A stretch of 64,000 nt of DNA, taken from assembly GCA_003246455.1 (NCBI GenBank), contig QKAF01000027.1:33201-97200 (forward strand), written 5' to 3'. The stretch comes from Bacteroidota bacterium. Lineage in GTDB: Bacteria; Bacteroidota; Ignavibacteria; SZUA-365. The stretch's first letter is position 1. Each line of letters begins with the position of its first letter. Shown piece by piece: positions 31,539-56,733 of the stretch. A program made the translations under genes and the position numbers. The notes under the pieces are model-generated. The model saw nothing but the letters and a program-made list of their open reading frames with translations. It ran no database searches and had not been told where the DNA came from.

Positions 31539-33044
31539 GTGGCACAGCGGAAACGGATCGACATCTTCTTCATTCTCTACCTCACCGCGATACTCGGTTT
31601 CGTGGTTGTTTCGAGGGAACGCGATAAAATCGATGAAGGAATGCATGAACTGAACGAACAGATCGTCCGGACGTTTGTCCCCCCTGTTCCGCTGAGACCG
31701 GAGGGCGACACGCTGCGTTGCTATGTCGACGCCGATTCGAACGGCATCGTCATCGGCGACCCGCGGGTGTTCGAGACGAAAGTGTTCGCTGGCGACATCA
31801 CCCCGGACGATGCGGTTTCCCTCTCCCTGCACAGTGTCATTCACGACGGGACGCTGACCACGCCCGATATCGTCTCGATCGGACCGCGCACGGCCGCGGG
31901 CGAAATAGCCGACCAGGAAGTGTTTTTCCCCGTCACCGGACTGTTCCCGCGTACCGGCGTCTATCATGTCAACATCGCGGCGAAGGCCCGACGGGTGCAT
32001 GAAAGCAGCCCGGGCGTGTTCGTCTACCGCGGAAAGCAGTTTGACACGTCGCTCGTCAGCCGGGAGATGATCGCTTCGGTGGAACAGTCGCGGCTGACGA
32101 TGACCGTGGTCGTCGAAGACACCTCGCTCGATCATATGACCTCCCTCCAGAGCCTGCAGATCGAGGCGGCGCGTGCGGAGATCACCTCCGCGATCGGATT
32201 CGAAGAGCGCAACACAGTCACGATCAATCTCGGCTGGGCCGCGCCGACGATGACCATCGTGCGCGGGGGAGGGCAGCTTCGCGAACTCACCCGCACTGAT
32301 CGCATGGTGGAATATGTCTGGAGCGGCGCGGTCACGAGCATGCCGTATACCGTCGAGATCGAGGCGCGCGCGAACCGCGGCGCCGGCGGTCGGGACATTG
32401 CCCGCACGCGTTTTTCCGTGTCCGGAATTCAGCCGTTTCTGCGTATGGCTCCTCCCGACATGGTGTTCGCCGGGGAGGATATCAATTTCGATATCAGCGT
32501 CGAGGGACTCGATAATCCGGCCCAGTACAGCTGGCGGCTGTTCGAGGAAGTCGGGCAGGGAGAACCCCTGCTGAAAATGGAGGGGCGCGGTTCACGGGTC
32601 GCCTACCGTATCCCGAACTCCTACGCCGACAAGCATCTCGTGGTCGAGGCCCGGTATAACGGCCGTCCCTATCGTTTCATCTCCCGCGCGTCGTATGCCT
32701 CGGGCAGCTCCCGCTTTGCCCTGCCGGTTGTCGAACCGCCCACGCGCATCGGGCTGGACCTGCCCGCGCGCGCAGCCGCGACGGCATCGTTCCGTTTCAC
32801 CGCATCGAAATACAATGACATCCGTTTCCGCGGCGAGCAGCCGATCGACCGCCTCGCCGACGTGCAGGTGGAACTCACCAATGAGGAAGGGAACGTGCTC
32901 GCCTCGGACGTATGGATGATGCGGAAAGGAGAATTCGAGTTTTCGCTCGAAAATCGTACGTCCATCCGCAAAGGCGGAGAGAGAATTATCGTCCGGATTC
33001 ACGCCGGTGGAAACACCGCGCAGCGCAGCATTCAGCTGTATTAA
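31539..33044 (+). CDS. GldM/PorM-sized bitopic periplasm-spanning protein with an ExbD/TolR-like acidic TM residue, copy 1 (M1).
   Basis: 501 aa. N-terminus MAQRKRIDIFFILYLTAILGFVVV is a single TM resembling the ExbD/TolR IDV-hydrophobic motif. Followed by a ~450-aa periplasmic beta-rich region. Confidence 0.5.
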   Translation: MAQRKRIDIFFILYLTAILGFVVVSRERDKIDEGMHELNEQIVRTFVPPVPLRPEGDTLRCYVDADSNGIVIGDPRVFETKVFAGDITPDDAVSLSLHSVIHDGTLTTPDIVSIGPRTAAGEIADQEVFFPVTGLFPRTGVYHVNIAAKARRVHESSPGVFVYRGKQFDTSLVSREMIASVEQSRLTMTVVVEDTSLDHMTSLQSLQIEAARAEITSAIGFEERNTVTINLGWAAPTMTIVRGGGQLRELTRTDRMVEYVWSGAVTSMPYTVEIEARANRGAGGRDIARTRFSVSGIQPFLRMAPPDMVFAGEDINFDISVEGLDNPAQYSWRLFEEVGQGEPLLKMEGRGSRVAYRIPNSYADKHLVVEARYNGRPYRFISRASYASGSSRFALPVVEPPTRIGLDLPARAAATASFRFTASKYNDIRFRGEQPIDRLADVQVELTNEEGNVLASDVWMMRKGEFEFSLENRTSIRKGGERIIVRIHAGGNTAQRSIQLY

Positions 33045-34168: not shown

Positions 34169-35776
34169 ATGGCTCATACTGCCGACCACTATAAAAAATA
34201 CCAGGTTTACTTCTTCCTGTATCTGGCTGTGATCTGCGAGCTTCTCATCATCATCGTGGAACGCGATGATGCGGAAGCCGACCTGCTTATGCAGCAGCGG
34301 ATGCTGGAAGAAAAGAATCGTAAGATCATTCTCGAGCTCCTCAAGAACATGCCCGCGGTGGCCGCGGCCGGTGACAACCAGCTGAAGGTCAACGAAGAGC
34401 GCAAGTTCACGATCAACGTGAAGGGTCTTGGCGAGAACGATGAAGTGACGACGCCCCCGGAAGTCAAGGTGTTCAAGGACGGTACCGAGATGGGTACCCT
34501 CAAGTACCCGCAGGACATCCAGGATTCCATCGTGCACGGCACGACCGGCGAACGTCTCTATCGCTTCACATGGAAGGCCGAAAGCGGTCCCGGCACCTAC
34601 GAACTGTGGGTGCAGGCCGGAACCAACCGCGTGTCCCTGACTCCGGATCTCGAGCAGGGCGAGGCGAAAATCAAGGTCGGAACGCTCGAATTCTCCCGCA
34701 AGGAGATCCGCTCCGCTCTCGATTCCGACCCGGATCTTCGCGGAACGCCGGTGGAGCACTTCATCGAGAAATCGGAAAATCTGATGCCCGATAAATTCGT
34801 TGTCGAAGTGGTTTCCGAGGAATACGATCAGCTGCAGATTCAGGCAGATCCGATCGTGACCGCCGTCGGCTTCCCGACCTTCAACGAAATCAAGGTTCGC
34901 GGTACCACCGTGGACAAGATCTCCAACATGAATATCGTCGGCGGCGGCGTCGCCCTGCGTCCTGACAACCAGCGCAACCCGTATTACAGCCCGGATCCCG
35001 AGCGCGGCAAGTGGGTGTGGTCCAACACCTACAATGACGCCGGCACGAAGTCCGTCAGTGTCGATGCGCGTGACAACCGCTCCGCGGGCGTCAAGAGCGT
35101 TTCCCGTCCCATCAGCTTCGATGTCATCGTGAAGGAGCCGTACCTGAGCCGCCGCAAACCGAGCGGTGCGTTTTCCGGCGAAATCTTCGAAATGAACATC
35201 AACGTCGCCGGTCTCGAAGACGTCGGTTCCTACGACTGGACCATCGAGATCGACAACGCGCAGGTGGAGAAGGGCAAAGGCAACGTGGTCAAGTACAAGG
35301 TGCCGGAAGATGCGCTGGGCAAGACCTTGACCATCAAGTCAACCTACAGGAACCGGGTGTACCAGGTACTGGTCGATTCTTCAGCGACGAACCTGACCTC
35401 TTCCGAATTCCTGTTCAACATCACCGCCCCTATCGACCGAATTGGATCGCAGTCCTTCGCGAATGGCGGCGAATACCCGATCAATAACGTCTTCCAGTTT
35501 GTCGCAGCCCGCTGCGGCCGGTGTATCGGATCCAATATCCGTAACATCCAGCCTTCCGACATCCGTGTGGAAGTGGAATCTGAAGACGGTCAGGATCTGC
35601 TTGCCGATACTCCCGAGGTTTTCCAGCGGACGAACCCGAATACCGGGGCAGACCAGGGCAGCCTTGTGAAATTCTATCTGAAGGGCAAAGTCGGCCGCGA
35701 CGGAACCGAGGCGACGATCACAATCCGTTACGGTGCCGTCAATGAGCGTTACACGGTCATGCTCTATCAGGAGTAA
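34169..35776 (+). CDS. GldM/PorM-sized bitopic periplasm-spanning protein, copy 2 (M2).
   Basis: 535 aa. N-terminus HYKKYQVYFFLYLAVICELLIIIVERDD is a single TM containing Glu. Large periplasmic region with Ig-like beta repeats. Confidence 0.5.
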   Translation: MAHTADHYKKYQVYFFLYLAVICELLIIIVERDDAEADLLMQQRMLEEKNRKIILELLKNMPAVAAAGDNQLKVNEERKFTINVKGLGENDEVTTPPEVKVFKDGTEMGTLKYPQDIQDSIVHGTTGERLYRFTWKAESGPGTYELWVQAGTNRVSLTPDLEQGEAKIKVGTLEFSRKEIRSALDSDPDLRGTPVEHFIEKSENLMPDKFVVEVVSEEYDQLQIQADPIVTAVGFPTFNEIKVRGTTVDKISNMNIVGGGVALRPDNQRNPYYSPDPERGKWVWSNTYNDAGTKSVSVDARDNRSAGVKSVSRPISFDVIVKEPYLSRRKPSGAFSGEIFEMNINVAGLEDVGSYDWTIEIDNAQVEKGKGNVVKYKVPEDALGKTLTIKSTYRNRVYQVLVDSSATNLTSSEFLFNITAPIDRIGSQSFANGGEYPINNVFQFVAARCGRCIGSNIRNIQPSDIRVEVESEDGQDLLADTPEVFQRTNPNTGADQGSLVKFYLKGKVGRDGTEATITIRYGAVNERYTVMLYQE

Positions 35777-35839: not shown

Positions 35840-37885
35840 ATGAGCAAACAATTTCTTTTACGTGCCTTTCTCTTCGTGGCACTCGTTGTAGGCCTCATGC
35901 CGCAGCTTTTTGCTCAGACCGACCGTGAGGTAAAGAGCAAACAGACGGATCTGAAGCACGAATACAACGACGCCTCTGAGAAAAACCAGATCATCAAGTC
36001 GGCGGCAGAGGACAAGCCGCGTGCGACGACCGGCCGCCGGCGCAGTTCGGCCACGACCGGTTACGATTACACGCAGGTGAAGGGATTTGCCCTTCGCCAG
36101 TTCAACGATCGCATCGACAAGGTGTTCGCCCGCGCCAACGATCTCGGCCTGTTCGAGGAAGAGTACCGTCTCGACGGTACCTTCCCGGTCCCCGGCCGCC
36201 AGGGCAAGGGCAGCGCGCAGATGCGCAAAATCGAGGTGTACTACGTCGAAGCAACGCCCGAGGAACAGGAACAGTTCGATATCGAGCCGTTCCAGATCAT
36301 CGAGGTGTATGTGGAAAAGCTGGAAACCCTGCCGCCTGAGGAAACCGCGGGCGAAACGGAAGAAGGCGGTCTCGGCCTCGGCTTCGACGCAAGCGCGTCC
36401 GAGCCGATCGCAAAGGGATATTCCCTTGCCGGAACCGATCTGACCAGCGTCCTGCAGCTTGCCGACGAAGCACTGTATGACGATATCCTTGCGAAGCGCA
36501 GCCAATCCAATCCGATTCCGCTTCCGGAACGCGGCGACTGGATGCCCGGCAAGGTCGGTCCTTTCATCGTCATGACCCAGCGCGAACTGGAAACCACCAC
36601 GAGTCGTTTCCGTGACTTCTGGAACATGCGCGATACGCTTGAAAGCGCGATCATCCCGCCGCAGTTCGAAGCGGCCGGTCCTTTCTATACCGGCAGCATT
36701 CCGATGTTCTACCCGGAAGCGAGCAAGGTGCGTGTCCGCAACCCGGAACGCAATCAGCCGCTGAAGATCACCAGCGCCGTCTTCGTTGGCGACAATGCCG
36801 ACAAGTGGGAAATCCGCACCAAGCTTCCGAAGGTTCTCGCCGGCAAGGGCGAAGCCAATGACAAGGAAGACATCGAATTCGCCTATATCGGCGGATCGGA
36901 ATACGAAACCCGCGGACAGCTGCTCATCGACGCAAAGGAAGCCAACCTCCAGCAGATCGTCGAGATCGTGTCCAACCCCGGACGGTATCCGGCCGACGTC
37001 GTGACGCTCGATGCGTCGCTCGACCGCGTCGAACTCCGCTCGCCCGCACGTTCCGGCTTCGCCCCGAACTGGAAGCTGGCCTATGTCATCGGCAACGATG
37101 AAGTCGGTCTGCCTCGCTGGTCCACGGGCATTTCCTCCCTCAGCGTGGGATACAAGAATCAGATGAGCGTCGGCGTCGTGCTTCCGATGAACATGACGGC
37201 TCCCGACCTTCCGACGCCGCTGGCGTTCGAGAAGAACCTGATGTCGTCGCCGAGCGGTTACAACGTCGCCTTCGATTTCACGTTCGGCTTCCCCTTCTCC
37301 CTCGGCGGAAACCTGACGGTCATCAACGATTATTCCGCGCAGGATGCGTACGATCACCTGAAGGTCATGCATATGAACTTCGATCCGCAGGTTGACCTGA
37401 AAGACTATGACAACGATTTCTTCCATATCTCCACGATCGCGCAGGTGTACTACCCGATCATGTTCAAGGATAATGCGGTCAATCCCAGTCTCGCATTCCG
37501 TCTGAACCTTGGTGGTGCCTTCATGCAGATCAAGCGAGATCACCTGGTCACCGATGCAGATCCGCTCGGCATGGGCAAGGAAGGCCGCATCTTCAAGACC
37601 GAAGAGATCGGCAAAATGGTCACGCTCGGCAAGGAAAAAGATCTCGTAGACGTGTACATTCGCATGTCCTTTATCAATCTGCGTTCCGCCAACAAGTACG
37701 GCATGGGCATTCAGTATTTCGCCGGCCGCATGATGGCGGATGCCTTCCTTGAACTCACCGAATGGCTGCGCGTGGACGCGAAGTACTCCTTCCTGCTCCG
37801 CGACCAGGAGATCTGGGAGACCGAAAGCAGTTACTTCCTCATCACTCCGCGCCTGCGTATCGGGCTGCCCTCCATTTTTAACTGA
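35840..37885 (+). CDS. Putative outer-membrane beta-barrel protein (OMP-A, ~680 aa).
   Basis: Signal peptide MSKQFLLRAFLFVALVVGLMPQLFAQ. C-terminal alternating hydrophobic beta-strands ending ...RLRIGLPSIFN. C-terminal block paralogous to the next gene. Confidence 0.45.
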   Translation: MSKQFLLRAFLFVALVVGLMPQLFAQTDREVKSKQTDLKHEYNDASEKNQIIKSAAEDKPRATTGRRRSSATTGYDYTQVKGFALRQFNDRIDKVFARANDLGLFEEEYRLDGTFPVPGRQGKGSAQMRKIEVYYVEATPEEQEQFDIEPFQIIEVYVEKLETLPPEETAGETEEGGLGLGFDASASEPIAKGYSLAGTDLTSVLQLADEALYDDILAKRSQSNPIPLPERGDWMPGKVGPFIVMTQRELETTTSRFRDFWNMRDTLESAIIPPQFEAAGPFYTGSIPMFYPEASKVRVRNPERNQPLKITSAVFVGDNADKWEIRTKLPKVLAGKGEANDKEDIEFAYIGGSEYETRGQLLIDAKEANLQQIVEIVSNPGRYPADVVTLDASLDRVELRSPARSGFAPNWKLAYVIGNDEVGLPRWSTGISSLSVGYKNQMSVGVVLPMNMTAPDLPTPLAFEKNLMSSPSGYNVAFDFTFGFPFSLGGNLTVINDYSAQDAYDHLKVMHMNFDPQVDLKDYDNDFFHISTIAQVYYPIMFKDNAVNPSLAFRLNLGGAFMQIKRDHLVTDADPLGMGKEGRIFKTEEIGKMVTLGKEKDLVDVYIRMSFINLRSANKYGMGIQYFAGRMMADAFLELTEWLRVDAKYSFLLRDQEIWETESSYFLITPRLRIGLPSIFN

Positions 37886-37899
37886 AAGGAGGCAGCACC

Positions 37900-39612
37900 A
37901 TGAAGAACCACACAGTATCAAGCACGGAACAACACGGCATGCAGATGAAAAACCGACTTCTTTCGATTCTCGCAGCACTTCTCGTTCTCGCCTGGCTCGC
38001 TCCCAATGCGGCACAGGCCCAGAGCTCGGATGATGCCCTGACGAGCGTCGAGCAGATCATGCGATACATGAAGAGCGCGAATTACTCGGAAGACGATATG
38101 CTCCAGCGCATGGCCTGGGGCGACCAGATCGTCAACGAACTCGTTTCCTTCAAGGCGTCTGAAGACGATCGTCAGAACTATCTCCGTCTTCTCGATATCG
38201 CCATCGATCATTACAAGGACGAGAACGACCGCCTCCGCATTCTTCTGCGTGCGCTCACCACCCTCGATCCCCTGGTGGCGAAGTACTTCCCGCAGTGGGT
38301 GATCCAGGACGAACCGATGATTCTCGAAGTCATGCGCAAGGTCCGTGATAACCGCGACGATCTGCTCGATGCGGACGCCGTCGGTATCGCCGAGCGCGTG
38401 CTCACCGGCAAGGCCCGGATGCGCGTCATCCAGAGCCCGAAAGACGATCAGAACCTGATCGCCATCTACATCGAAAAGGCGCGTCCCCATGACGACGAAA
38501 AGCTTTCTGCCGGCTTCCTGCCGAACAAGGACAACGGCGATTTCGACGACTATCGTATCGTCGGCCGCCGCAACCTTCGTGAGATCCTCACTCCGGACCT
38601 CTACGACGCAGTGGTCGCCAAGCAGTCGTATGCGCATCTCGACGAAACGGGCGCGGTCAAACCGCAGCCGTACGTTGCCGAAGCGACGATCAGCGTTCCT
38701 TTCGGCGGTGGTTTCATGTGGACCCTGGATTCGGACGAGCGCATCGGCGACGGCGTCACGCTGCAGCCTTCGCGCATCCGCGCCGGGTTCGAACTGAAAA
38801 TCGGCAACGACTGGGTGAACCTGCCGTTCCTGTACGGCGCGCAGTGGAATACGCTGTTCGTCTACGAGCCGTCCGCTACCGAGCGGGTCAAGATCGGTCC
38901 GTCCATTCCCTTCACCTGGGGTGACAAGAGCATCTCGGAGAATTTCCCGATCTTCAAACCGCGTACCCTCAACGGGACGTGGGGCGCGGCCGGTGAATAC
39001 TACAAGCAGCTCTCCAACGTCGCGGGCGCACCGGGCGTGGACGCAGACGGAATCGGCGCCGCCGCCTTCGTCTCCTTCGGCCTGAAGACCCTCGGCAACA
39101 AGAAGATCACCAACCTCGACGGTACCATCATCAACGGCGACGGTGCGGAAGCCGCGCTGCAGCTGCCGCTGACCCCGGCGGATGCCCAGAAAGCGCATTT
39201 CTACTACCTCGCGAATTCCGCGAACCTGTTCTACTGGCGTGACCTCGGCTTCATGCTCAGCGGTCTCCGCCTGCATGCCGGTCTCGGATATCAGAAGACC
39301 GTCGAAGCCGTTCGCCAGAATCCGTTCGACCAGCCCAACCAGTCCGCATGGAATCCTGACAGCGTCAGCATCGTCAGCGACAACAGCGTCCTGGATGCGT
39401 TCGTGCGCCTTTCCTACGATCACGGCGGCAAGACCACGTACGGCGTGGCGCTGCAGTATTTCAACGGCGGCGTGATGGGCGAGGTGTACCTCAACATCTT
39501 CAGCTGGATGCGCGCGGAAGTCAAGTACTCGCGCATGCTGTTCCGCGATCCGGAAGTCTGGGAACACGAAGAAATGATCGTGCCCGGCCTTCGCTTTGGC
39601 TTCGCATTCTAA
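37900..39612 (+). CDS. Putative outer-membrane beta-barrel protein (OMP-B, 570 aa), paralog of OMP-A.
   Basis: RBS aaggagg. Signal peptide ...LAWLAPNAAQAQ. C-terminus ...WMRAEVKYSRMLFRDPEVWEHEEMIVPGLRFGFAF ends in Phe (beta-signal). Aligns with the OMP-A C-terminus WLRVDAKYSFLLRDQEIWETESSYFLITPRLRIGL. Confidence 0.45.
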   Translation: MKNHTVSSTEQHGMQMKNRLLSILAALLVLAWLAPNAAQAQSSDDALTSVEQIMRYMKSANYSEDDMLQRMAWGDQIVNELVSFKASEDDRQNYLRLLDIAIDHYKDENDRLRILLRALTTLDPLVAKYFPQWVIQDEPMILEVMRKVRDNRDDLLDADAVGIAERVLTGKARMRVIQSPKDDQNLIAIYIEKARPHDDEKLSAGFLPNKDNGDFDDYRIVGRRNLREILTPDLYDAVVAKQSYAHLDETGAVKPQPYVAEATISVPFGGGFMWTLDSDERIGDGVTLQPSRIRAGFELKIGNDWVNLPFLYGAQWNTLFVYEPSATERVKIGPSIPFTWGDKSISENFPIFKPRTLNGTWGAAGEYYKQLSNVAGAPGVDADGIGAAAFVSFGLKTLGNKKITNLDGTIINGDGAEAALQLPLTPADAQKAHFYYLANSANLFYWRDLGFMLSGLRLHAGLGYQKTVEAVRQNPFDQPNQSAWNPDSVSIVSDNSVLDAFVRLSYDHGGKTTYGVALQYFNGGVMGEVYLNIFSWMRAEVKYSRMLFRDPEVWEHEEMIVPGLRFGFAF

Positions 39613-39739
39613 CGCGAACGCCTTTTCGAACGATTGACATACGTGCAGGCGGTGGACACATCCCATCGCCTGCACATGTTTTTAACCGTGATTTTTTCGA
39701 CAAGGTGGAACCAGCCCGCGATTCAATCCGTTCCGTTCA

Positions 39740-41119
39740 TTGAAACCGCGTGCCGAATCAAGCGTTATGCCCGTTAATACGTTCGTTCCATTATACATTG
39801 TCATCGCCGTTCTTCTCGCCCTGCCGGGAGGGCAGGACCTGTACTCCGCGCCCCAGGCGACAGGGATCCAGCCGGGCGACAGCCTGCGCAAACCGACCAT
39901 CATCTCCGCTCGCAGCAAACACCCCGAAGCCGTTACCGTCTCCATCCGCGCCGTCGACATCAGCCGCTACCCCGAGGTCAGCGTCATTCTCGATGCGCGC
40001 GACTCACTCGGAAATCACTTCCCGAGCCTGAGGAAGAGCGACATGGTGATCTACCAGGACAGCGCGCCGGTGGAAGTGGAATCGCTCGAGAAGATTTCCG
40101 CGAACAACAGTTTCCCCGTCGATATTGCGTTCATCATCGATCAGACGGGAAGCATGTCGCAGGAGGTCTACGAAGTCAAGGCCAACATCATTGATTTCAC
40201 GCAGCGCCTTGCATCCCGCGGAGTGGACTATCGTCTCGCGCTGCTGACATTCAGCGACCGGATCGAACGCTACAAGGATTTCACCGAGGACGTGAAAACC
40301 TTCATCGGATGGATCGACGGGCTGAAGATCGGCGGGGGGATGGACGACAACGAGAATGCGCTGGAAGGGATGTTCGAAGCCACGTCATTCAAATTCCGTC
40401 AGAGTGCGCAGAGGATCTTCATCCTCATCACCGACGCGATGTTCCATCAGAAAGGGGACAAGGGGTACGGGAAAACCGATTTTACCGCGAAGACGATGAC
40501 GGACTTCCTTCTCAAACAGAACATCAAGCTCTTCGCAATCACTCCGCCGCAGATCTCTGAATACAAGTACATGACCGAGGCGACCCGAGGAAAGCGCTTC
40601 AACATCATCGAAGATTTCAGTTCCATCCTCGACGAATTCAGCGAGTCGCTGACGAATCTCTACGCCATCCGGTATCACATCACCGAGGAAGTCCCTCCGG
40701 AAAAAATGAACCTGGAGATTCGCAACTCCCAGGACGAGGTCGTGCTGCAGGAAGAGGTCACCGTGCTCGACGTCGACAAGAAATTCGTGCTGGAGAACAT
40801 CCTGTTCGATTTCAATCGCGCCACCTTCGATATGTCCTATACCGACGAATTGAAGAACATTCTCGCGATGCTGCGCAAGTACGAGAACATTCACATCGAG
40901 ATCCGCGGACACACCGATTTCATCGGAAGCGACGAGTACAATATCGCGCTCTCCGACGCACGCGCCCGCGCAGTGAAGAAATACCTTGTGGACCGCGGTA
41001 TCGGCGAGATGCGGATAACGACGCGCGGCATGGGGAAATCGCAGCCCATCGCGCCAAACGACACCGAACTCGGCCGCCGTCTCAATCGTCGTACGGAAGT
41101 CATCATCACGCGGAAGTGA
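39740..41119 (+). CDS. vWA-domain protein with C-terminal OmpA-like peptidoglycan-binding domain.
   Basis: MIDAS motif DIAFIIDQTGSM...T...D (vWA). C-terminal NILFDFNRATF...HIEIRGHTDFIGSDEYNIALSDARARAV...TRGMGKSQPIAPNDTELGRRLNRRTEV (OmpA_C). Confidence 0.8.
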   Translation: MKPRAESSVMPVNTFVPLYIVIAVLLALPGGQDLYSAPQATGIQPGDSLRKPTIISARSKHPEAVTVSIRAVDISRYPEVSVILDARDSLGNHFPSLRKSDMVIYQDSAPVEVESLEKISANNSFPVDIAFIIDQTGSMSQEVYEVKANIIDFTQRLASRGVDYRLALLTFSDRIERYKDFTEDVKTFIGWIDGLKIGGGMDDNENALEGMFEATSFKFRQSAQRIFILITDAMFHQKGDKGYGKTDFTAKTMTDFLLKQNIKLFAITPPQISEYKYMTEATRGKRFNIIEDFSSILDEFSESLTNLYAIRYHITEEVPPEKMNLEIRNSQDEVVLQEEVTVLDVDKKFVLENILFDFNRATFDMSYTDELKNILAMLRKYENIHIEIRGHTDFIGSDEYNIALSDARARAVKKYLVDRGIGEMRITTRGMGKSQPIAPNDTELGRRLNRRTEVIITRK

Positions 41120-41155: not shown

Positions 41156-41569
41156 CTATTCACCCATGATTTTAATGATAAGCCGCTTGGGCCGCCGACC
41201 GTCGAACTCGGCGTAGTAAATCTGCTGCCACGGACCGAAGTCGAGGGCGCCCGCCGTGACCGGGACGATCACTTCATGATGCACGAGCAGGCTTTTGAGG
41301 TGCGCGTCCCCGTTTGTCTCGCCCGTCCGATGATGGCGGTAATCGCGACGGAACGGAGCGAGGTATTCGAGCCAGTCGTCGATGTCCTGCAGGAGCCCGT
41401 TCTCGGCATCGTTGACCCAGACGCCGGCGGTAATATGCATTGCGGAAACCAGGATCATTCCCTCGCGGATGCCGCTTTTTCGCAGCGCGTCTTCGACCTC
41501 CGAGGTGATATTGACATACTCCCGCTTCTGCGGGGTGTTGAATGTCAGGTATTCAGTGTGGAATTTCAT
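41156..41569 (-). CDS. YjbQ/UPF0047-family protein (secondary thiamine-phosphate synthase-like).
   Basis: [25 protein letters not shown]...[17 protein letters not shown]...[16 protein letters not shown]. It is only the C-terminal part of the 898-aa table ORF; the remainder of that ORF is an antisense shadow of recD2. Confidence 0.7.
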
Positions 41570-41605
41570 GAACATTCTCCTCAGGCGTGAACGATAGTCA
41601 GAACC

Positions 41606-43816
41606 ATGGGCAAAAAGATCCCGGATCATGATAGGCGCGGCGGTGATGAAACGCAAGGCGAGCAGTCGCTCGAGGCAGTGCTCGAACGGGTCATCTGGTC
41701 GGCGCCCGACAGCGCATTCGTCGTCTGCAGCATAAAGGTCGAGGGTGAACTGTTCCCGCTGACCGCCGTGGGAGAAATGGTATCGCCGTCGCCCGGTGAC
41801 CGCTACGTACTGCACGGCCGCTGGGACGAGCACCCGCGCTACGGGAGGCAGTTCCAGTTTTCCTCCTACGATGTTCAGTACCCGGTGACTCCCGAAGGGA
41901 TCGAGCGCTATCTCGGATCGGGACTGATCCGCGGCCTCGGGAAAGGTACGGCCCGGCGGATCGTCGATCGCTTCGGTACAAGGACGCTCGACGTGATGAA
42001 CAATGAAATCGAGCGCCTGCTCGAGGTCGAAGGTATCGGGGAAAAAAAACTCGATGCCATCCAGCATGAATGGGAGAAGCAGCGGGGGGTGCAGACCGTC
42101 ATGCTCTTTCTCAAGGCGCATAACATCAGCAGTGCATGGGCGGTGCGGATATATCGCGCCTACGGGAACGAGGCGATCACCGTCATGCATGACAATCCGT
42201 ATCGCCTGATCGACGATATCGAAGGAATCGGATTCATGACCGCGGATTCCATCGCACGGTCGCTGGGCATTGCCGCGGGCGATGCGCGCCGTGTCCTGGC
42301 CGGCATGAGCTACGCGCTCAAGGAAGCGGCGCGTCGCTACGGGCATACCTGCGTCCCGGAAAGCGAGTTTCTTCGTCATGCCGCCACGGTCCTTGAAGTG
42401 GAGCTTGACGAGGCATACGCCGCGCTCCGTCTTGCCATCGAGTCGGGGAGGGCGTTCCTGTATGACGATCACGTGTACCTGCCCGAACTGATGCACGCGG
42501 AGGAGGCGATCGCCGATTCGCTCCGCACCGCGTTCCGGGAAGAGTGGGACGATCTCGATCATCTCGGACTGGACAGACGACTCGCGGATGTCGAGGCCGC
42601 ACGGGGAATCCGTCTCAACGCGCAGCAGGTGGAAGCGGTGCACAAATGCCTCTCCGGACCGGTCTGCATTCTCACGGGCGGTCCGGGTACGGGAAAAACC
42701 ACGACGCTCACCGGCGTCCTCGATCTTGCCCGTCAGCTCGAATGGAGTATCGCGATCTGTGCGCCAACGGGACGCGCGGCCAAGCGTATCACCGAGGTCA
42801 CGGGTCACGACGCGAAGACGATACACCGTCTGCTGGAGTTCGATCCGTCCGTGATGGCCTTTCAGCGGAACGAGGACAACGTCCTCGAGGCCGATATCCT
42901 CGTTGTAGACGAGATGTCCATGGTAGACGTTTCGCTGATGGCCGCGCTTCTCCGTGCCCGCCGTCCGGGCTGCCGTCTCGTACTGGTGGGCGACGCGGAC
43001 CAGCTTCCGTCGGTCGGTCCGGGGACGGTCCTGCGAGATCTGATCAGCTGCGGCGAATTCGACACCGTCGTGCTGCGGCTCGTGTTTCGGCAGGCCGCGC
43101 ACTCGAGCATCGTCAGCAATGCGCACCGCATGCGTCAGGGATACATGCCCGTGTTCGACACGCGAATCGTCGACGGCGGAGAAACGTTCTTTCGCGAAGT
43201 CGGTCCCGAAGAAAACCTCGGTGCGCTCGTGCGCGATCTCGTCGCCACCCGCCTGCCGCAGGAACTGGGCTGCGACCCGATGCGCGACATCCAGGTGCTT
43301 TCCCCGATGTACGACACTCCCGCGGGAGTGACCCACTTGAACCACGTTCTGCAGCAGGCGGTGAACGGCAGCGCCCGCGTGGTGTTTCAGCGCGGGGACC
43401 GCAGTTTCCGTGCCGGAGACAAGGTGATGCAGACGCGGAACGATTACGGGAAGGATGTCTACAACGGCGACATCGGGTATGTGCAGCGGTACGACGAAGA
43501 AGAGAATCTTCTGTTCATCGATTTCGACGGCAGGGCGGCAGGATACGCGCCGGAGGAAACGGATGAACTCGTGCTCGCCTATGCCATCACGGTCCACAAG
43601 AGCCAGGGAAACGAATACGAGATCGTGATCGTCCCTGTCGTCATGCAGCATCGGGTCATGCTGCGGCGCAATCTCATGTACACGGCGATGACACGTGCCA
43701 AACGGATGATGGTGTTTCTCGGGCAGCGGAGCGCGCTCGCGATGGCGGTGGAAAACTCGCGCGAGCAGCGCCGCTTCGGTCTGCTGCCCCAGCGGCTGCA
43801 GGAGGCGCTGCGTTGA
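41606..43816 (+). CDS. recD2: RecD2-type ATP-dependent DNA helicase (SF1, RecD-like).
   Basis: Walker [21 protein letters not shown]-terminal OB/HhH region, C-terminal SH3-like. 736 aa. Confidence 0.85.
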
Positions 43817-43997
43817 GCATCTCCCGAGAGTAATTTCTTCATCGTCCTTCACCCCGCGCAGCGGAATTGTCAGGTTCAGGCGGGAGGATACGGGATTCGC
43901 CCGTAGGTTTCCTGCCGAGGTTTATGTAAATTAAGAAGTCATTTGCGAATCGATTTTCCTCTCATTTGGATTTGCGCAGCAAGTTCAGAACAGAGCA

Positions 43998-50354: not shown

Positions 50355-50852
50355 ATGCAAGCGCAGACGCAAGATAAATACACGCTAACCTTCTGGGAGA
50401 AGCTCTACATTCCCGAGATTCTCAAAGGGATGAAGCTGACGTTCGGCCAGATGGTGAAGAAGAAAGACACCCGCGAGTATCCCGAAGAAAAGTGGATTCC
50501 GCCTGCATCATACCGCGGTGCGCCCGTCCTCGTGCAGGAGGAAAACGGCATCGAGCGCTGTGTCGCCTGCGGACTCTGTTCGCGGGTCTGCCCCGCGCTC
50601 GCGATCGAGGTGCAGGCCGCGGAAACCGCGGATGAGAAAGAGCGCTATCCCGAGCGTTTCGAGATCAACATGCTTCGCTGCATTTTCTGCGGATTCTGCG
50701 AAGAAGTGTGTCCCGAGGAAGCGATCGTCATGAGTCCCACCTACGAAATGGTGTTCACCGACTACGAAGACGCCATTCTCGGAAAGGATAAACTGCTCAC
50801 GCCGGTGGAGAAGCTTCGTCCCCGCCTTGAATTTCTCCGCGAGCACCGTTAA
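50355..50852 (+). CDS. nuoI: NADH-quinone oxidoreductase subunit I (2x[4Fe-4S]).
   Basis: CVACGLCSRVCP and CIFCGFCEEVCP motifs. Confidence 0.9.
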   Translation: MQAQTQDKYTLTFWEKLYIPEILKGMKLTFGQMVKKKDTREYPEEKWIPPASYRGAPVLVQEENGIERCVACGLCSRVCPALAIEVQAAETADEKERYPERFEINMLRCIFCGFCEEVCPEEAIVMSPTYEMVFTDYEDAILGKDKLLTPVEKLRPRLEFLREHR

Positions 50853-50862
50853 TCGCATCCCG

Positions 50863-52635
50863 GTGGCCTCCGCGGTTCCCCGCATATATCGATTTCTGGT
50901 AATATCGTCCCTTCTCGGGGCGATATTCCTTTTTCATGGCTGTCTCAGTCTCATCGACGGTATTATCATTCCCGCCCAGGTCAGTCTCGATCAGGAATTC
51001 CTGGTCGCGGTGGACGGCTCCGTGATCGGACACGGGGGCGGAATGGCAGGGCTTGTGGTCCAGGTGCCGGAGAGTTTCGAATTCCTGGGAGCGACGTACG
51101 TCACCTCGTCCGCCAGAAGGGTGCTTCGCCGAAACGGAAACGTGGCCGCGCGCTATCGCGCCGAGAAGGGACACGTGGTGATCGCGGTGGGAGACAGCAT
51201 TCCCTCGAGCAGGGAAACCGACGCGGACGTCCGTGTGCTGCTGCGCTTCGTGCCGAAACAGGCAGGACCTTTTACCGTCAAGTTTGCCAGCGGCGTCGTC
51301 GTCATGCAGAACGGCCGTCTTGCGTGGCGGAGCACGGATCCGGCGGATCTCCGGGATTTCGGCGAGTTGACGGACGAGCGCCTCGTGCGCACGCTGCAGG
51401 TGGTGTACGCGGAGCGGAACGGGACGGCGGCCATCGAACTGGCCGGAAACCGCCAGCATCTGCTGTGTCCCGACAGCGGGCTTTTCCGTCTGCCGCTCGA
51501 CCGCGATTTCACCATCGAGACCTGGTGTGCGACCGTTTCGACAGATGCGCCGCTGATCAGTTCGCGTCCTGACGATTTCAACACGGCCTTCCCGTTCGAA
51601 CTGCGCATATCATCATGGGGAGAAGCGCAGGTGCGCTGTGCCGACGGGCACCACTCGTGGTCGAGTGAGCGGGGGCCTTTCATCGCCGACGGAATGTGGC
51701 ATCATCTTGCGGTCTCATGGTGCAGCGACAGTCTCCGCTACGTGCTCTACGTCGACGGCCACGCGGCAGATACGCTCGCGGTCCCTGAACTGATGCGGGG
51801 AGTTTCCGCAGACCAGCTCGTCATCGGGACAAATCTTCCCCGCACCCAGTTCGTCCGTGCGTCGTTCGACGAACTTCGTCTGTGGGAAACCTGTCGCAAC
51901 GAGCAGGAAATAGCGTATTACCGCGACCTCGCCCTGAGCGGATACGAAACCAACCTCTACGTGCTCTTTTCGTTCGATAACGGGACAGACGGGCACATCG
52001 CCGGGCAGTCGCAGCTCGACAGCCTGTGGCTCTTCGCGTACAACAAACCGCGCCTGGTCGTTTCCACCACGCCGCTGCGCATCGAGCTTCTTGCATTCAA
52101 TGCGGTTCTCGACGAAGACAGCGTCCGGATGAGCTGGGAGACCTACGACGAATCGAAGGTTCGCGGATACGAGGTCGAGAAGCGGCTCGAATCGGGAAAG
52201 TACACCGTGATACATCACATCGAGCCGCTGCGGACGGCGGAACGGCATCAGGAGTACGCCGTCACCGACAACTGGCGGGGGCGCGAAATCGCTTACTACC
52301 GGCTGCGGAAGCTCAATACTGACGGGACCGTTCTGTTTTCCGAGGAGGTCCCGATCGGCACGGAGACCATCCTGAATTTCGTGCTGGAGGACAACGTGCC
52401 GAATCCGTTCACCGAGAGCACGGAAATCCGCTACACGCTGTCGAAGCGCACGCGTGTCGACCTCACCGTGTACGACATCATGGGCAGTGAAATCCGGGTG
52501 CTGGTTTCGGAACGGCAGGAGGCCGGCAGTTACACCGTCGCCTTTGACGGGAGCGATCTTCCGGGCGGGATGTATTTTTACAAAATGCGTACAAGTACTG
52601 GTTCCCAAACAAAAAAGATGTATCTTGCCAAGTGA
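50863..52635 (+). CDS. LamG/concanavalin-A-like-lectin-domain protein with T9SS C-terminal sorting domain.
   Basis: Probable GTG start (VASAVPRIYRFLVISSLLGAIFLFHGC). The LamG-like block contains WHHLAVSW. CTD LEDNVPNPFTESTEIRYTL...GMYFYKMRT. The table ORF start inside nuoI is rejected. Confidence 0.55.
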   Translation: MASAVPRIYRFLVISSLLGAIFLFHGCLSLIDGIIIPAQVSLDQEFLVAVDGSVIGHGGGMAGLVVQVPESFEFLGATYVTSSARRVLRRNGNVAARYRAEKGHVVIAVGDSIPSSRETDADVRVLLRFVPKQAGPFTVKFASGVVVMQNGRLAWRSTDPADLRDFGELTDERLVRTLQVVYAERNGTAAIELAGNRQHLLCPDSGLFRLPLDRDFTIETWCATVSTDAPLISSRPDDFNTAFPFELRISSWGEAQVRCADGHHSWSSERGPFIADGMWHHLAVSWCSDSLRYVLYVDGHAADTLAVPELMRGVSADQLVIGTNLPRTQFVRASFDELRLWETCRNEQEIAYYRDLALSGYETNLYVLFSFDNGTDGHIAGQSQLDSLWLFAYNKPRLVVSTTPLRIELLAFNAVLDEDSVRMSWETYDESKVRGYEVEKRLESGKYTVIHHIEPLRTAERHQEYAVTDNWRGREIAYYRLRKLNTDGTVLFSEEVPIGTETILNFVLEDNVPNPFTESTEIRYTLSKRTRVDLTVYDIMGSEIRVLVSERQEAGSYTVAFDGSDLPGGMYFYKMRTSTGSQTKKMYLAK

Positions 52636-52923
52636 AATTCTCGGGGAAAATAGGACGTACCGCGGTACACCCGTGTGCTGTTTTCCCGCAGAAAAACAGC
52701 TTGACATTCGTAGCCCCCGTGGTTAATTTTATCTTTATTATACTTACATGACGTTTATTTGCGGAGATGCAGCAACAATATTTCGGAGAAGCGAATGTTT
52801 GGGACTCCCGTTTCAATCATTCTTCATGGCGCATCTTCGCCGACATGCTGAATCTGCGAGCGATACAAGTAAAGTGATGAACCATATCAGCTCAATTATT
52901 CCCCAACTGCCAGGAGGTATTTC

Positions 52924-55900
52924 ATGAGGAAGTTGACTCTTCTTTCAGCAGTATTTCTTCTCGGCGTACTGCTTACGCAGGTGGGCTTTGCGAACGGAAC
53001 GTACAAGTACGTAAGCAAACCGCACCTTCGTATCCAAGCCGGCCAGACGACTATCGACGCCATCTACGTTCCCGTGAACGTCGCGGTGTCCGATGTGCGT
53101 GTCGGTGTGTACGCCAAGACCATCATGTATTCTTCGTTGCGTATCACGCTCGTTTCGCCGTACGGCAACGAAGTGGTACTGAAGCAGGAGAGCGGAAATC
53201 CCGCGGCGACGCCGCTGTTTGGTTCGCTCGGTTCGAGCCGTTCGATGGCTCTTTTCCAGCAGGGTGGCAATCCTCTTGGCGCTCAGCCCAACGATCGCAC
53301 GCTCAACACCGCAACTTCGCTGAGCGCGCTCAACGGCGTGCTCTCCGCAGGCTGGTGGCAGATCAAGGTGGTTGACGAGCGTAATTATGCAGCATCTGCT
53401 CCTCCGCAGGATGGTTTCCTCGAAGAGTGGAGCCTGATGTTCAACCGCCAGATCATCGAAGCGGTGCAGCCGTTCAATCCCCCCGTCAATCTCGTGTTCC
53501 CGGGCGGTTCCACCATCCGTGGCCAGCTCAACGGTACGACCGCGACGCAGACGAATCCGAACCGCGCACAGATCCCCAATGAAAGCGGCAACCCCGGTCT
53601 CCTCTGCAACGGTGTCGGAAACGATCCGAGTGTCGTTCTCGGCGTGAACGGCGATGCATTCCCTGTCGTGATTTCCGGTCACCCCGGCGCGATCATCGGC
53701 CAGAATGCAAATGGGTATCCCGCGGGTCGCTTCCGCGTGACCATCACTGTCGAGACCAACTTTGCTCCCGGCAGCACGTTCATTACCGGTCTTACCGAAG
53801 ATATCGCGATTTATTTCGGTCGCGTCGCTGACGGTCCCGGAATCCTGCCGCTTCCCGCGCCTCCCGGCGTTGGCGATCCCGGCTTCCAGGCAAAGAATGC
53901 CTCCGGTTGGCCGACTGGCGCCGGCACCGTCAACACCCTTCAGGGTGGTGCCAGCGGTCTGTACGGCGGCGTGCGTCTCGCAGCCTGCATCTCCCCGGTC
54001 CCCGGTGTTGATGAGTACGGTTACGATCGCGTGACCTTCGACGACTATGCATTCGATCAGATTGCTGAAAATCTGCCCGCAGGCCCGAACGGCGGTTTCG
54101 CCGGTACGTACCGTGGCGAGCAGATGCTGAACACCCTCAACGGCCAGCCCGTTGACGGACTCTACTATGTCTCCGTGTACGACTGCTTCAACGATGCGCA
54201 GCTTGGTTTCGGCCACATCCGTGTGACCTACCTCCAGGTCGAGTACATCGTCGGCGGCGGCGAAGTTTCCGATCCGACCCGCCATCAGGGCTTTGTCGGT
54301 CCGCTCATGGGCGTGCCCATTCCGGGTGGGTTCACGGGTTCGGCACTCGGCTACCTGACGGATGTCGTTGGCGTGGTTCCGCCGTACAAGGAAAACGCAA
54401 AGGACCAGGATCCGATCCTCGTTTTCTGGGCAACCCAGAAGATGTATCCGAAGGATGCGACCGGTACCGAGCGTATCATGGCCGTTGATCAGAACAACTA
54501 TGCGCCGCCTTCGGCAACGCATTATCATGGTCCCTACGCATACCCGGGCGCGCTTGACGCAGATCCTCTCGTCGCCGGCGCATTCGTGAACGCGGACGTG
54601 CTCATTGTTCCGAAGGGCGATTATAATCTGCGCGTGAACCTCATGCAGGCACGCTATGATGACGACCTCGCCGACAACGAATTCGAGTCTTCGATGATCA
54701 ATGTCAACGACGTCTCTCTTTCGTACCACGGCAATCAGGTTGTTCAGTGGAACAGCTTCATCAATCCGCTCAACACCGGCGTGCTCGCCTCTGCGACGCT
54801 CGCTCCGGGCCAGGGCCTTGGTGATGCATTCACGCTGTTCAAATACCCGACCACGCAGGTTGCCAGCGTTGATTACCGCTTTGACCGCGGTCTGGTTCTC
54901 ACCCCGCGTGCACGCGTCCGCGCGACCGTCTGGGCATGCAACAACGGCTACGCCGGAGCGCCGACCACAGTCGTCGCCCGTTCGCCGTACGTCAACATGA
55001 ACGAGTACATTGAAGGCAACTGGCGCACCTTCCCGATCTACCCGATCGACGCCAACGGCAATGCGGACATCGCAGCCGGCGGTTCGGTGAACCTCGCCCC
55101 GGGTACCTACGTTGTCACCATCGACAACGGCGATAACCAGGGTGGCCTGTTCCTCGTGTACCCGTACACCTACGGTGTCATCCCCGCACTCGCGGATCGC
55201 TACGAGGATTATCTCTTCGGCGACCTGTTCGGTCCGCTCGGTCCGTACTCGACGCTCGGAACCCGTATGACCTATATCAACACGGACAATACCTCGGCCC
55301 CGAATCTTTCGTTCGGTACCGCCAACACGACGTATGCAAACTTCGTCGCTCCGATCCGTGTCAATATGACTTCCCTTAATGACTTTGCAGTCAACTACGT
55401 GCGCTGGTCGAGCCAGACCTCGCATGACGAAGCCATCACTGTTGGTCAGCCCGTTACCCCGATCGTCAACGTGACCGCCGCTTCGACGCAGAACGGTCTC
55501 ACCAAGGACTTCAACATTTACCTGGCGGTGTACGACGGCGGGAACAACCTGCTGTACAGCGACATGGTGAACGTCGCCAATACCGGCGGTATCAACGGTT
55601 ACCAGACCCTTTCGATCAACCTGGATCCGTGGACGCCGCAGACCGGTGGCGTGTACAAAGTCAAGGCGTACTTCACGCGCAATCCTGACGATCAGAACCC
55701 GGTGAACGACATGGTCGAGTATGACCTCACGGTGCTTGCACAGCCCGTCGTCATGTTCGATCCCGGTGTGAGCTCTTCGCAGCTCAACGAGATGGTCGAG
55801 ATCCTCCGCAGCCGCGGTACCAATCCGGTGCTCGTCAATGCCAGCGAAGGCAATCTCTCCGCGTACAAGAACAGCACGATTTATGTTCTCGGCAATGTGA

Positions 55901-56658
55901 ACAGTGACCTCCTCACTCCTGCAATTGCCGCGGGCAACGATATCGCGTTCGTGTACGATCGCAGCGAAAAGGTCGGAACCACGATCCAGGCGATCGACGG
56001 TCTCTACGGCATCACTCGTGCCGCCAAGGTCGATTACTCCAACCTCGAGCTCGCAGCAACCCTGAAGGTCGATCCCAATGCGGTTCCTGACCAGCAGGTG
56101 AAGACCATCGAGCTTCCCGAATTCAGTTCCAAGGAAGATGTGCTGTCCTACATCGCCTCCCAGGATCTGAAGGTCGAAGCACCGGCATCCATGAAGAAGG
56201 ATCGCGTCAATGCAACCAGCTTTGACAACGTGATCTCTGTTGCGACCGGAAGCAAGTACGGTGATATCCGCTTTACCAGCGAGAACATGGGTTCCCTGGG
56301 TGTGATCTACACCTTCCCGGCAAACCGTACGGCGACCGTTGGTCAGCCGCCGGTTACCCCGTCGGGCTTTGCTCTCGAGCAGAACTTCCCGAACCCGTTC
56401 AATCCCTCGACCGTCATTACCTACGCACTGCCTGAGGCAAGTGTCGTGACCCTGCGCATCATCGATGTGCTCGGCCGCGATATCGCGACCCTCGTCAGCA
56501 GCACGCAGAATGCCGGTACCTATTCCATCAACTGGAAGGGTATGGATCAGAACGGCGTCGACGTTCCCTCCGGCAGCTACTTCTACCGTCTCGACGCGAC
56601 GCCGACCTCCGGTGCCGCTGCCTTCTCGAGCACGAAGAAGATGGTGCTGTCCAAGTAA
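52924..56658 (+). CDS. Giant (1244 aa) secreted T9SS C-terminal-sorting-domain protein.
   Basis: Signal peptide MRKLTLLSAVFLLGVLLTQVGFA. CTD LEQNFPNPFNPSTVITYAL...GSYFYRLDAT. RBS ccaggagg. Confidence 0.7.
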   Translation: MRKLTLLSAVFLLGVLLTQVGFANGTYKYVSKPHLRIQAGQTTIDAIYVPVNVAVSDVRVGVYAKTIMYSSLRITLVSPYGNEVVLKQESGNPAATPLFGSLGSSRSMALFQQGGNPLGAQPNDRTLNTATSLSALNGVLSAGWWQIKVVDERNYAASAPPQDGFLEEWSLMFNRQIIEAVQPFNPPVNLVFPGGSTIRGQLNGTTATQTNPNRAQIPNESGNPGLLCNGVGNDPSVVLGVNGDAFPVVISGHPGAIIGQNANGYPAGRFRVTITVETNFAPGSTFITGLTEDIAIYFGRVADGPGILPLPAPPGVGDPGFQAKNASGWPTGAGTVNTLQGGASGLYGGVRLAACISPVPGVDEYGYDRVTFDDYAFDQIAENLPAGPNGGFAGTYRGEQMLNTLNGQPVDGLYYVSVYDCFNDAQLGFGHIRVTYLQVEYIVGGGEVSDPTRHQGFVGPLMGVPIPGGFTGSALGYLTDVVGVVPPYKENAKDQDPILVFWATQKMYPKDATGTERIMAVDQNNYAPPSATHYHGPYAYPGALDADPLVAGAFVNADVLIVPKGDYNLRVNLMQARYDDDLADNEFESSMINVNDVSLSYHGNQVVQWNSFINPLNTGVLASATLAPGQGLGDAFTLFKYPTTQVASVDYRFDRGLVLTPRARVRATVWACNNGYAGAPTTVVARSPYVNMNEYIEGNWRTFPIYPIDANGNADIAAGGSVNLAPGTYVVTIDNGDNQGGLFLVYPYTYGVIPALADRYEDYLFGDLFGPLGPYSTLGTRMTYINTDNTSAPNLSFGTANTTYANFVAPIRVNMTSLNDFAVNYVRWSSQTSHDEAITVGQPVTPIVNVTAASTQNGLTKDFNIYLAVYDGGNNLLYSDMVNVANTGGINGYQTLSINLDPWTPQTGGVYKVKAYFTRNPDDQNPVNDMVEYDLTVLAQPVVMFDPGVSSSQLNEMVEILRSRGTNPVLVNASEGNLSAYKNSTIYVLGNVNSDLLTPAIAAGNDIAFVYDRSEKVGTTIQAIDGLYGITRAAKVDYSNLELAATLKVDPNAVPDQQVKTIELPEFSSKEDVLSYIASQDLKVEAPASMKKDRVNATSFDNVISVATGSKYGDIRFTSENMGSLGVIYTFPANRTATVGQPPVTPSGFALEQNFPNPFNPSTVITYALPEASVVTLRIIDVLGRDIATLVSSTQNAGTYSINWKGMDQNGVDVPSGSYFYRLDATPTSGAAAFSSTKKMVLSK

Positions 56659-56697
56659 GCGGCGGATTCCCCGCATACTAGACAGGAACAGCTGATT

Positions 56698-56733
56698 GAA
56701 AGCGCCTCCGGTTACCGGAGGCGCTTTCGTTTT
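56698..56733 (+). terminator. Rho-independent terminator after the giant T9SS cargo gene.
   Basis: AGCGCCTCCGG-tta-CCGGAGGCGCT plus TTCGTTTT. Confidence 0.7.

Follow-up and report, generated by a model that had tools for sequence, protein, structure and literature searches.

A tandem pair of paralogous proteins with predicted C-terminal beta-barrels, encoded beside conserved inner-membrane and peptidoglycan-binding genes

The window analysed here is a 64,000-nucleotide stretch of a Bacteroidota genome, and it contains seven genes in the order L1-M1-L2-M2-A-B-VWA/OmpA (Table 1). Two of them, A and B, are the focus of this report. A preliminary description made from the DNA alone gave their products as 692 and 570 aa; the length of B stands, while that of A counts from an upstream GTG at 35807 and public gene calls give 681 aa. 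Both proteins begin with cleavable Sec-type signal peptides of the kind expected of outer-membrane barrels (MSKQFLLRAFLFVALVVGLMPQLFA followed by Q in A; a sequence ending in MKNRLLSILAALLVLAWLAPNAAQA followed by Q in B), with Ala-Gln cleavage sites as had been proposed, and in ortholog comparisons Q26 of A and A40/Q41 of B are nearly invariant. A terminal Phe had been claimed for both proteins. B does end in one (LRFGFAF, with F568 and F570 invariant), whereas in A (RIGLPSIFN) the Phe is the penultimate residue. The hairpin that begins 30 nt 3′ of the B stop codon can be put forward as a terminator by way of suggestion, such sites in the region being no more frequent than expected from shuffling. 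A sigma-70 promoter scan of the region was uninformative, as expected for Bacteroidota.

Table 1. Genes, protein segments and other features of the A/B locus (positions are those of the window; residues are those of each protein)
Feature	Position	Strand	Description
L1	30700..31467	+	255 aa; first gene of the conserved cluster
M1	31539..33044	+	501 aa; one N-terminal TM helix, large beta-rich periplasmic part
L2	33288..34121	+	277 aa; cleavable signal peptide (VHA/Q), then 3 TM helices
M2	34169..35776	+	535 aa; beta-rich periplasmic region of ~500 aa
Gene A	35840..37885	+	681 aa from ATG
A, signal peptide	residues 1-25		cleavage LFA/Q26
A, helix/low-confidence segment	residues 26-78		conserved
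A, alpha/beta domain	residues ~79-222
A, linker	residues 223-285		low-confidence yet conserved
A, PapD/ASH-like Ig sandwich	residues ~286-405
A, C-terminal beta-barrel (predicted)	residues ~406-677
A, equivalent motif block	37694-37861	+	residues ~619-674
Gene B	37900..39612	+	570 aa
B, signal peptide			cleavage AQA/Q41
B, N-terminal domain	residues 41-255		helical/alpha-beta, highly conserved
B, strands	residues 261-569		14 long strands, predicted
B, shared C-terminal motif block	39424..39591	+	residues ~509-564; YGxxLQYFxGxxMxExYLxIFxWMRAEVKYSxxxFRDPExWExEE...P
Terminator-like hairpin	39643..39675	+	13-bp stem, 9 G-C pairs, T-rich tail
VWA + OmpA_C protein	39740..41119	+	450-459 aa; N-terminal signal/anchor; last gene of the conserved cluster

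A and B are paralogues, as the preliminary description had it. BLASTP aligns their last 84 residues (A 605-687 with B 489-568) at 35% identity (E 7e-14), and profile-profile comparison (hhalign) of the two ortholog families carries the homology across the whole C-terminal domain (214 columns, probability 98.8%, E 5e-17). The barrel domains can be placed in a joint alignment, B ~290-570 against A ~400-681, in which Y260, G261, Q265, Y266, W282, R284, R295, E301 and P308 are invariant (numbered after the alignment's first sequence). The motif WxRxxxKYSxxLxRDxExWExE, first described as common to both, is literal in B (WMRAEVKYSRMLFRDPEVWEHEE); A carries it with a one-residue deletion (WLRVDAKYSFLLRDQEIWETES). 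Across the barrel family the conserved motif reads QYF.G..M...L...W.R.E.KYS...RD.E.WE, and it recurs as QY...WL...LE.KY..P..RD..PWE in a consensus built from 65 distant relatives, most of which terminate in F.

An exhaustive profile search recovered 179 clusters with the A/B barrel at E<=1e-3. The barrel is C-terminal in every one, and each full-length distant match with a neighbouring gene in view (6/6) is a tandem barrel pair; all hosts of the family are uncultured MAGs. The family is without a representative in Pfam, NCBIfam or the PDB: A and B matched no family in Pfam at E<=1 or in NCBIfam, 31 barrel domains matched none in either collection at E<=10, and PDB sequence-profile searches with the A and B families gave 0 matches at E<=10. 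Among the models with no match were those for FadL/Toluene_X (PF03349; E<=10 for the 31 barrel domains), PorP/SprF (PF11751, TIGR03519), PorV (NCBIfam and Pfam) and Autotransporter (Pfam PF03797), which bears out the earlier judgement that the two proteins are not recognizable as PorK, PorN, PorP or PorV. The 65 distant relatives likewise gave no FadL/Toluene_X (PF03349) match in Pfam at E<=0.01; one of them (1/65) has a single weak match to OMP_b-brl.

The predicted structures of A and B each end in a transmembrane-type beta-barrel, a closed antiparallel one of amphipathic strands, which we predict to number about 12-14 per protein. Hydrophobic and polar residues alternate in most of the predicted strands, so the amphipathic periodicity noted earlier is there. 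Local confidence in the barrel regions is good, most pLDDT values lying at 80-93 and falling lower at some loops; uncertainty over how the domains are placed relative to one another keeps pTM down at 0.50-0.52. Every structural neighbour of B is an outer-membrane barrel, and most of those of A are barrels too, joined by Ig-like sandwiches that match its middle domain. Structure prediction thus agrees with the barrels first proposed and did not give a soluble periplasmic fold devoid of one, nor was there a confident assignment to an unrelated known family in Pfam, NCBIfam or the PDB. Closest by fold are the 14-stranded barrels of the FadL/PorV/BamG type (PDB 1t16, 6h3i chain F, 9n2d chain B), with 8-13% identity in structural alignments and no HMM match, and Foldseek searches of the PDB added only generic porins with low TM-scores. 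The likeness to FadL and PorV looks generic, because OmpG scores equally well. What sets A and B apart is the part that precedes the barrel, 210-380 conserved extra residues per protein, which in A include an Ig-like domain. PorV lacks anything of the kind, and FadL has at its N-terminus a small hatch plugging its barrel. In B the N-domain is as conserved as the barrel (entropy 0.89 vs 1.03 bits), and variability peaks in two segments placed at predicted extracellular loops. We infer that A and B reside in the outer membrane, with their N-domains probably facing the periplasm.

The genes that surround A and B encode two L/M pairs and a VWA-OmpA protein. L1 has a cytoplasmic N-domain, 2 TM helices (Glu/Gln in the second) and a coiled-coil tail, and L2, whose topology is ExbB/TolQ-like by inspection, has an invariant Glu217 in its last TM helix and an acidic cytoplasmic tail. 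M1 and M2 are paralogous (BLASTP E 2e-21). The TM helix of M2 (YFFLYLAVICELLIIIVERDDAE; near-invariant pattern YFFLYLAVxCELLIIIVERD) is nearly invariant and contains a membrane-embedded Glu23. The last protein of the cluster has Pfam matches to OmpA (2.8e-21) and VWA (3.8e-11), and the OmpA_C domain is a peptidoglycan-binding one. The complete gene order is shared across the lineage: it is found in the window and in loci L001, L003, L005, L009 and L010, and it recurs, identical over all seven genes, in the distant locus L038. Other distant loci keep parts of it: L011 has an L2-like gene (probability 98.9%), an M-like gene and two barrels; L039, whose flank is unrelated, has an M-like gene, two barrels and VWA-OmpA but no adjacent L gene; and L013 has two barrels, preceded by a gene for whose product no link to the M family was found. 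A VWA-OmpA gene comes after the two barrels in L001-L010, L038 and L039. Synteny inside one lineage could come partly from shared ancestry; this cause is disfavoured because the barrels and their partners stay together in distant loci whose flanks differ. In L041, a third L-TPR-M locus, L2 has its counterpart in a third paralogue (probability 100%), the locus has no barrels and the ORF after M3 is not a barrel; therefore the L/M pairs are not strictly dependent on adjacent A/B genes.

Because A and B are encoded beside the same uncharacterised inner-membrane and cell-wall-binding genes, they probably form the outer end of an envelope-spanning machine. The reading we favour, with moderate confidence, is that they anchor in the outer membrane a conserved envelope-spanning apparatus of seven genes and act together, probably as a heteromeric pair. 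Two inner-membrane pairs, each of a polytopic L and a bitopic M, would span the periplasm toward the A and B N-terminal domains, with the ~500-aa periplasmic region of M as the reaching part, and the VWA-OmpA protein would tie the assembly to peptidoglycan. The conserved gene neighbourhood suggests physical contact of A and B with the M proteins, and contact with the VWA-OmpA protein is likewise presumed; the invariant membrane-embedded Glu in the M2-type and L2-type helices would be consistent with energy coupling.

An envelope machine of partly similar plan is the T9SS, whose cargo is used by the host lineage. Its envelope core consists of a PorL/PorM motor, a PorK/PorN ring, a PorP barrel and the OmpA-type anchor PorE (cf. 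PMC8754138 and PMC12365241). The A/B cluster shares with this core a polytopic protein of the inner membrane, followed by a bitopic one whose long periplasmic region is rich in beta structure, as well as barrel(s) of the outer membrane and an OmpA_C protein that binds peptidoglycan. A and B might be diverged T9SS or gliding barrels (PorV/PorP/PorQ-like), with L/M as diverged PorL/PorM motors and VWA-OmpA as a PorE-like anchor. We regard this as improbable. No component is recognisably homologous: A, B, L1, L2, M1 and M2 gave no accepted match to T9SS models of Pfam and NCBIfam even at E<=1-10, PDB profile searches with M, L2 and L1 returned noise and missed the GldL, GldM, PorL and PorM chains present there, and phmmer with the L1 TM region also yielded only noise. 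A weak NCBIfam match of L1 to GldL (E 0.09) was set aside, since it falls within the coiled-coil tail and only 1/5 L1 orthologs shows it. GldL/GldM homology of the L and M proteins is not supported, because hhalign of L1, L2 and M against alignments of the PDB GldL/GldM chains gave probabilities of 4.6%, 1.1% and 0.3%, the last for M vs GldM; nor, then, is the GldM/PorM identity first implied for the M proteins. As a separate observation, the L alignments do coincide with the expected TM hairpin. No FGE-sulfatase or PorN domain, the mark of the operon partners gldK/porK and gldN/porN, was found in the clusters examined, and no type-B CTD cargo gene, as would accompany PorP/SprF, lies beside A/B, where the neighbours are L/M proteins and VWA-OmpA. 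The place of PorK/PorN is occupied instead by two paralogous barrels with putative periplasmic domains, the L/M pair is tandem-duplicated and the anchor carries a VWA domain. PorV scores as a fold no better than OmpG or FadL, and PorV and PorP are without large N-terminal domains.

The fold itself would fit a transport channel equally well. A and B could be autonomous FadL/OmpG-type channels for hydrophobic or other solutes, next to which L/M and VWA-OmpA lie with no functional meaning; FadL, TodX, OmpG, KdgM and general porins are among their best matches by fold, and the 14 strands predicted for B match FadL and OmpG. Against this quite improbable account stand the persistence of the paired barrels and their neighbours at distant loci where the flanks differ, conserved N-terminal residues that simple channels do not have, and the lack of any sequence match to Toluene_X/FadL. 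Export of the N-domains as passengers through the C-terminal barrel for surface display, as in type V autotransporters, is very unlikely, since conservation of the N-domains equals or exceeds that of the barrel, which is not the pattern of surface passengers, the barrels matched best have 14 strands (as B is predicted to have) and not 12, no Autotransporter model matches and the operon partners face the periplasm.

With A and B read as the anchor of an envelope-spanning apparatus, two further systems invite comparison. The Agl-Glt gliding complex of Myxococcus and its Nfs paralogue have paired outer-membrane barrels, GltA/GltB. This is also a trans-envelope machine, with two paralogous barrels in its outer-membrane platform that are encoded beside inner-membrane and periplasmic partners, although its motor is TolQR-like (AglRQS) and Pfam-recognisable, whereas L and M of the A/B cluster match nothing. 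The A/B cluster resembles the Tol-Pal and ExbB-ExbD-TonB systems in the topology of L2 (N-out, 3 TM helices, cytoplasmic tail), in the one TM helix of M2, which like that of ExbD and TolR holds a conserved acidic residue, and in the OmpA-type peptidoglycan binder downstream. It differs in that TolR/ExbD are much smaller than the M proteins, no L or M protein has a MotA_ExbB or ExbD match in Pfam, there is no TolB or TonB-box partner and the outer-membrane partners are two dedicated barrels. A bolder reading, which we hold to be doubtful, is that the cluster encodes, in Ignavibacteria-like Bacteroidota, an ion-driven trans-envelope machine of a class not recognised before, with two stator-like L/M pairs driving a braced A/B heterodimer. 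The L/M pairs would pass force across the periplasm by way of the invariant Glu helices of M2 and L2, the receiver would be the dedicated barrel heterodimer braced to peptidoglycan by VWA-OmpA, and the whole would be an analogue, not a homologue, of GldLM-PorKN, Tol-Pal and Agl-Glt. Our search of the literature on GldL/GldM-like systems and T9SS in Ignavibacteria found nothing that describes the cluster.

Outer-membrane barrels are otherwise a well-known kind of protein; those of the A/B family come as an obligate-looking tandem pair with conserved putative periplasmic domains, genetically tied to a VWA protein that binds peptidoglycan and to inner-membrane proteins, likewise unannotated, in which acidic residues are buried. 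Should the cluster prove to be the lineage's T9SS core in much diverged form, it would reveal the extent to which such a core can drift and that barrels can stand in for PorK/PorN. If it is one machine, it would be a new entry beside the flagellar stator, Tol/Ton, GldLM and Agl-Glt among envelope-spanning, possibly ion-driven systems, with seven concrete genes to test.

Structure prediction and fold comparison support the main reading of the preliminary description, that A and B, the products of directly consecutive + strand genes separated by 14 nt, are two paralogous outer-membrane beta-barrels. AlphaFold2 models, for which the family alignments served as input (A1, 45 B orthologs; A2, 47 A orthologs), gave mean pLDDT values of 75.8 for B and 72.8 for A, with the C-terminal parts mostly at 80–93. 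The B model contains 14 long strands (residues 261–569) and the A model 12–14 (residues ~387–677). Hydrophobic and polar residues alternate in most of the predicted strands, in line with the periodicity noted earlier, so that support for the predicted barrels is good. A and B resemble PorV and FadL no more closely than they resemble OmpG, and the likeness is thus generic. A highly conserved RD.E.WE segment is placed in the loop preceding the last strand.

By BLASTP, only the final ~84 residues of A and B align (35% identity, E 7e-14), and the C-terminal motif earlier noted as shared lies inside this block, with a one-residue deletion in the A copy. Comparison of the two families with hhalign detects homology over 214 columns (probability 98.8%, E 5e-17), and when the C-terminal domains are aligned jointly (A3), conserved positions run from B ~290 and A ~400 to the C-terminus. 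Paralogy consequently covers essentially the entire C-terminal domain, and the observation of two adjacent paralogues is confirmed. The proposed signal peptides also stand: both are cut between Ala and Gln, after LFA in A (Gln at residue 26) and after AQA in B (Gln at residue 41), at nearly invariant residues. A Gln at +1 agrees with the 'Q-rule' that describes signal-peptidase-I substrates in Bacteroidetes. One further detail holds in part: the terminal Phe ascribed to both proteins is present in B (GFAF) but not in A, which ends PSIFN. The 692 aa reported for A are reached from an upstream in-frame GTG at 35807; counting from the ATG gives 681 aa, and public gene calls on identical contigs have 681 and 570 aa. 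G+C content of the window is 56–64% (2-kb windows), and the long antisense ORFs were rejected as shadow ORFs, which are typical of DNA rich in G+C. For the + strand products A and B there are 54 and 63 clusters of conserved orthologs.

Positions and properties of features in the window and at one related locus
Feature	Position	Strand	Description
ABC-transporter ATPase	2354-3919	-	
T9SS sorting-domain protein cluster	14605-18997		
Hairpin before L1	30600-30627		terminator-like
L1	30700-31467	+	
M1	31539-33044	+	
L2	33288-34121	+	
M2	34169-35776	+	
A	35840-37885	+	681 aa from ATG
Linker of A	36506-36694		residues 223-285
B	37900-39612	+	570 aa
Antisense ORF over A	35858-38014	-	718 aa
Antisense ORF over B	37918-39675	-	585 aa
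Hairpin after B	39643-39675		terminator-like; 13-bp stem, 9 G-C pairs
VWA-OmpA	39740-41119	+	VWA + OmpA_C
Antisense ORF over + strand gene	41156-43852	-	898 aa
T9SS sorting-domain protein cluster	50827-58081		
L3-TPR-M3	L041 6273-9488 (JGI Ga0208462_1000264)		no adjacent barrels

Neither protein matched a Pfam or NCBIfam family at E<=1, nor did any of 31 barrel domains at E<=10; 65 distant relatives matched no Pfam family except for one weak OMP_b-brl match, and profile searches with both families over all PDB sequences found nothing. By sequence, A and B therefore fall outside PorP/SprF, PorV and FadL/Toluene_X, the families named earlier for comparison, and outside the autotransporters. Run exhaustively with HMMER against 1.84 billion representative proteins, the joint barrel profile picked up 179 clusters at E<=1e-3 (85 at E<=1e-10), and in every full-length match listed (420–735 aa) the barrel is C-terminal. 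The barrel family of A and B is undescribed, and its predicted periplasmic domains are conserved. Scanning one genome per species located 24 barrel loci in ~20 metagenome-assembled genomes, mostly labelled Bacteroidota, Bacteroidetes or Ignavibacteria bacterium, and no cultured carrier. Several TPA MAG records (L015, L026, L028, L029, L031, L034) whose cluster is of the Bacteroidota/Ignavibacteria type are titled 'uncultured Chromatiales bacterium', probably a taxonomic mislabel.

The gene order L1, M1, L2, M2, A, B, VWA-OmpA, all on the + strand, is identical in relatives down to ~56% identity (L001, L003, L005, L009, L010). L1 and L2 are polytopic inner-membrane proteins, M1 and its paralogue M2 (E 2e-21) each have one TM helix and a large beta-rich periplasmic part, and VWA-OmpA, which has a peptidoglycan-binding OmpA_C domain, carries a MIDAS-like motif, DQTGS. 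The distant loci to which the barrel profile led are more telling. L038 shows all seven genes in this order, though its flank differs; L011 encodes L2-like (probability 98.9%) and M-like (99.2%) proteins and two barrels, the second at 99.7%; L013 has two barrels in tandem; and L039, with unrelated neighbours and no L gene, combines two barrels and VWA-OmpA with an M-like protein (probability 96.4%; its N-terminal helix is 52% identical). From these loci, the core that recurs consists of a protein of the M type, the two barrels and VWA-OmpA. In all full loci examined, VWA-OmpA comes directly after the two barrels. Terminator-like hairpins, which in this region are not enriched over shuffles, lie before L1 and, a strong one, after B; they are a hint that L1 to B make up one six-gene transcription unit, VWA-OmpA being transcribed separately or by read-through.

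Upstream of A, L1/M1 and L2/M2 form tandem pairs of inner-membrane proteins that carry no annotation, and none of the four matched a Pfam, NCBIfam or PDB-profile family. The sole GldL match (E 0.09) lay within a coiled coil, was seen in one of five orthologs, and was rejected. When genuine GldL and GldM from several species, taken from the PDB search, were compared by hhalign, the probabilities were 4.6% (L1 vs GldL), 1.1% (L2 vs GldL) and 0.3% (M vs GldM), and the GldM/PorM identity that the earlier term 'M subunits' suggests is not supported. The best local L alignments hit the GldL TM hairpin and place a conserved Glu on GldL Glu49, which statistically is no evidence. At least five window proteins carry T9SS C-terminal sorting domains (Por_Secre_tail), in two clusters, among them a Laminin_G_3 protein and one of 1244 aa that bears a proprotein-convertase P-domain, so the host uses type IX secretion; that the A/B cluster itself encodes T9SS components appears improbable. 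For the ABC-transporter ATPase, GldA, a gliding-associated protein, ranks second among the NCBIfam matches (E 7.8e-51, below cutoff); the ATPase is probably just a generic member of the ABC class.

In B, conservation of the N-terminal domain (residues 41–255) is on a par with that of the barrel (0.89 vs 1.03 bits entropy per column). The most variable stretches of B (395–433 and 473–487) lie on loops that are extracellular given periplasmic barrel termini, and the homologous stretches of A (496–525 and 570–591) behave alike. Outer-membrane proteins whose N-terminal domain is periplasmic usually show this pattern, which argues against the N-domains being autotransporter-like surface passengers. 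The linker of A is well conserved (entropy ~1.2 bits; 0.8 for residues 241–255) despite a pLDDT of <50, and may need a partner in order to fold.

L2 has a cleavable signal peptide and three TM helices, with an invariant Glu217 in the last. The M2-type TM helix, YFFLYLAVxCELLIIIVERD (YFFLYLAVICELLIIIVERDDAE in the window), contains a buried Glu and is almost invariant across distant relatives. ExbBD, TolQR, MotAB and GldLM are ion-conducting stators, of which these features are reminiscent, by analogy rather than demonstrated relationship. MAGs holding the main cluster encode a third M paralogue of ~495 aa (e.g. WBQ23_13355, KQI65_15735, HY962_13980); in L041 this paralogue is M3 of the L3-TPR-M3 arrangement, and a few kb upstream are genes for an OmpA-domain protein and an Ig/SprB-like protein. 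It is a tentative and rather doubtful idea that the cluster encodes an ion-driven trans-envelope machine of a new class, and any mechanism beyond the placement of A and B we can only infer. The conserved neighbourhood makes it fairly likely that A and B are the outer-membrane end of an envelope-spanning complex, so far uncharacterised, to which the L and M proteins and VWA-OmpA would also belong.
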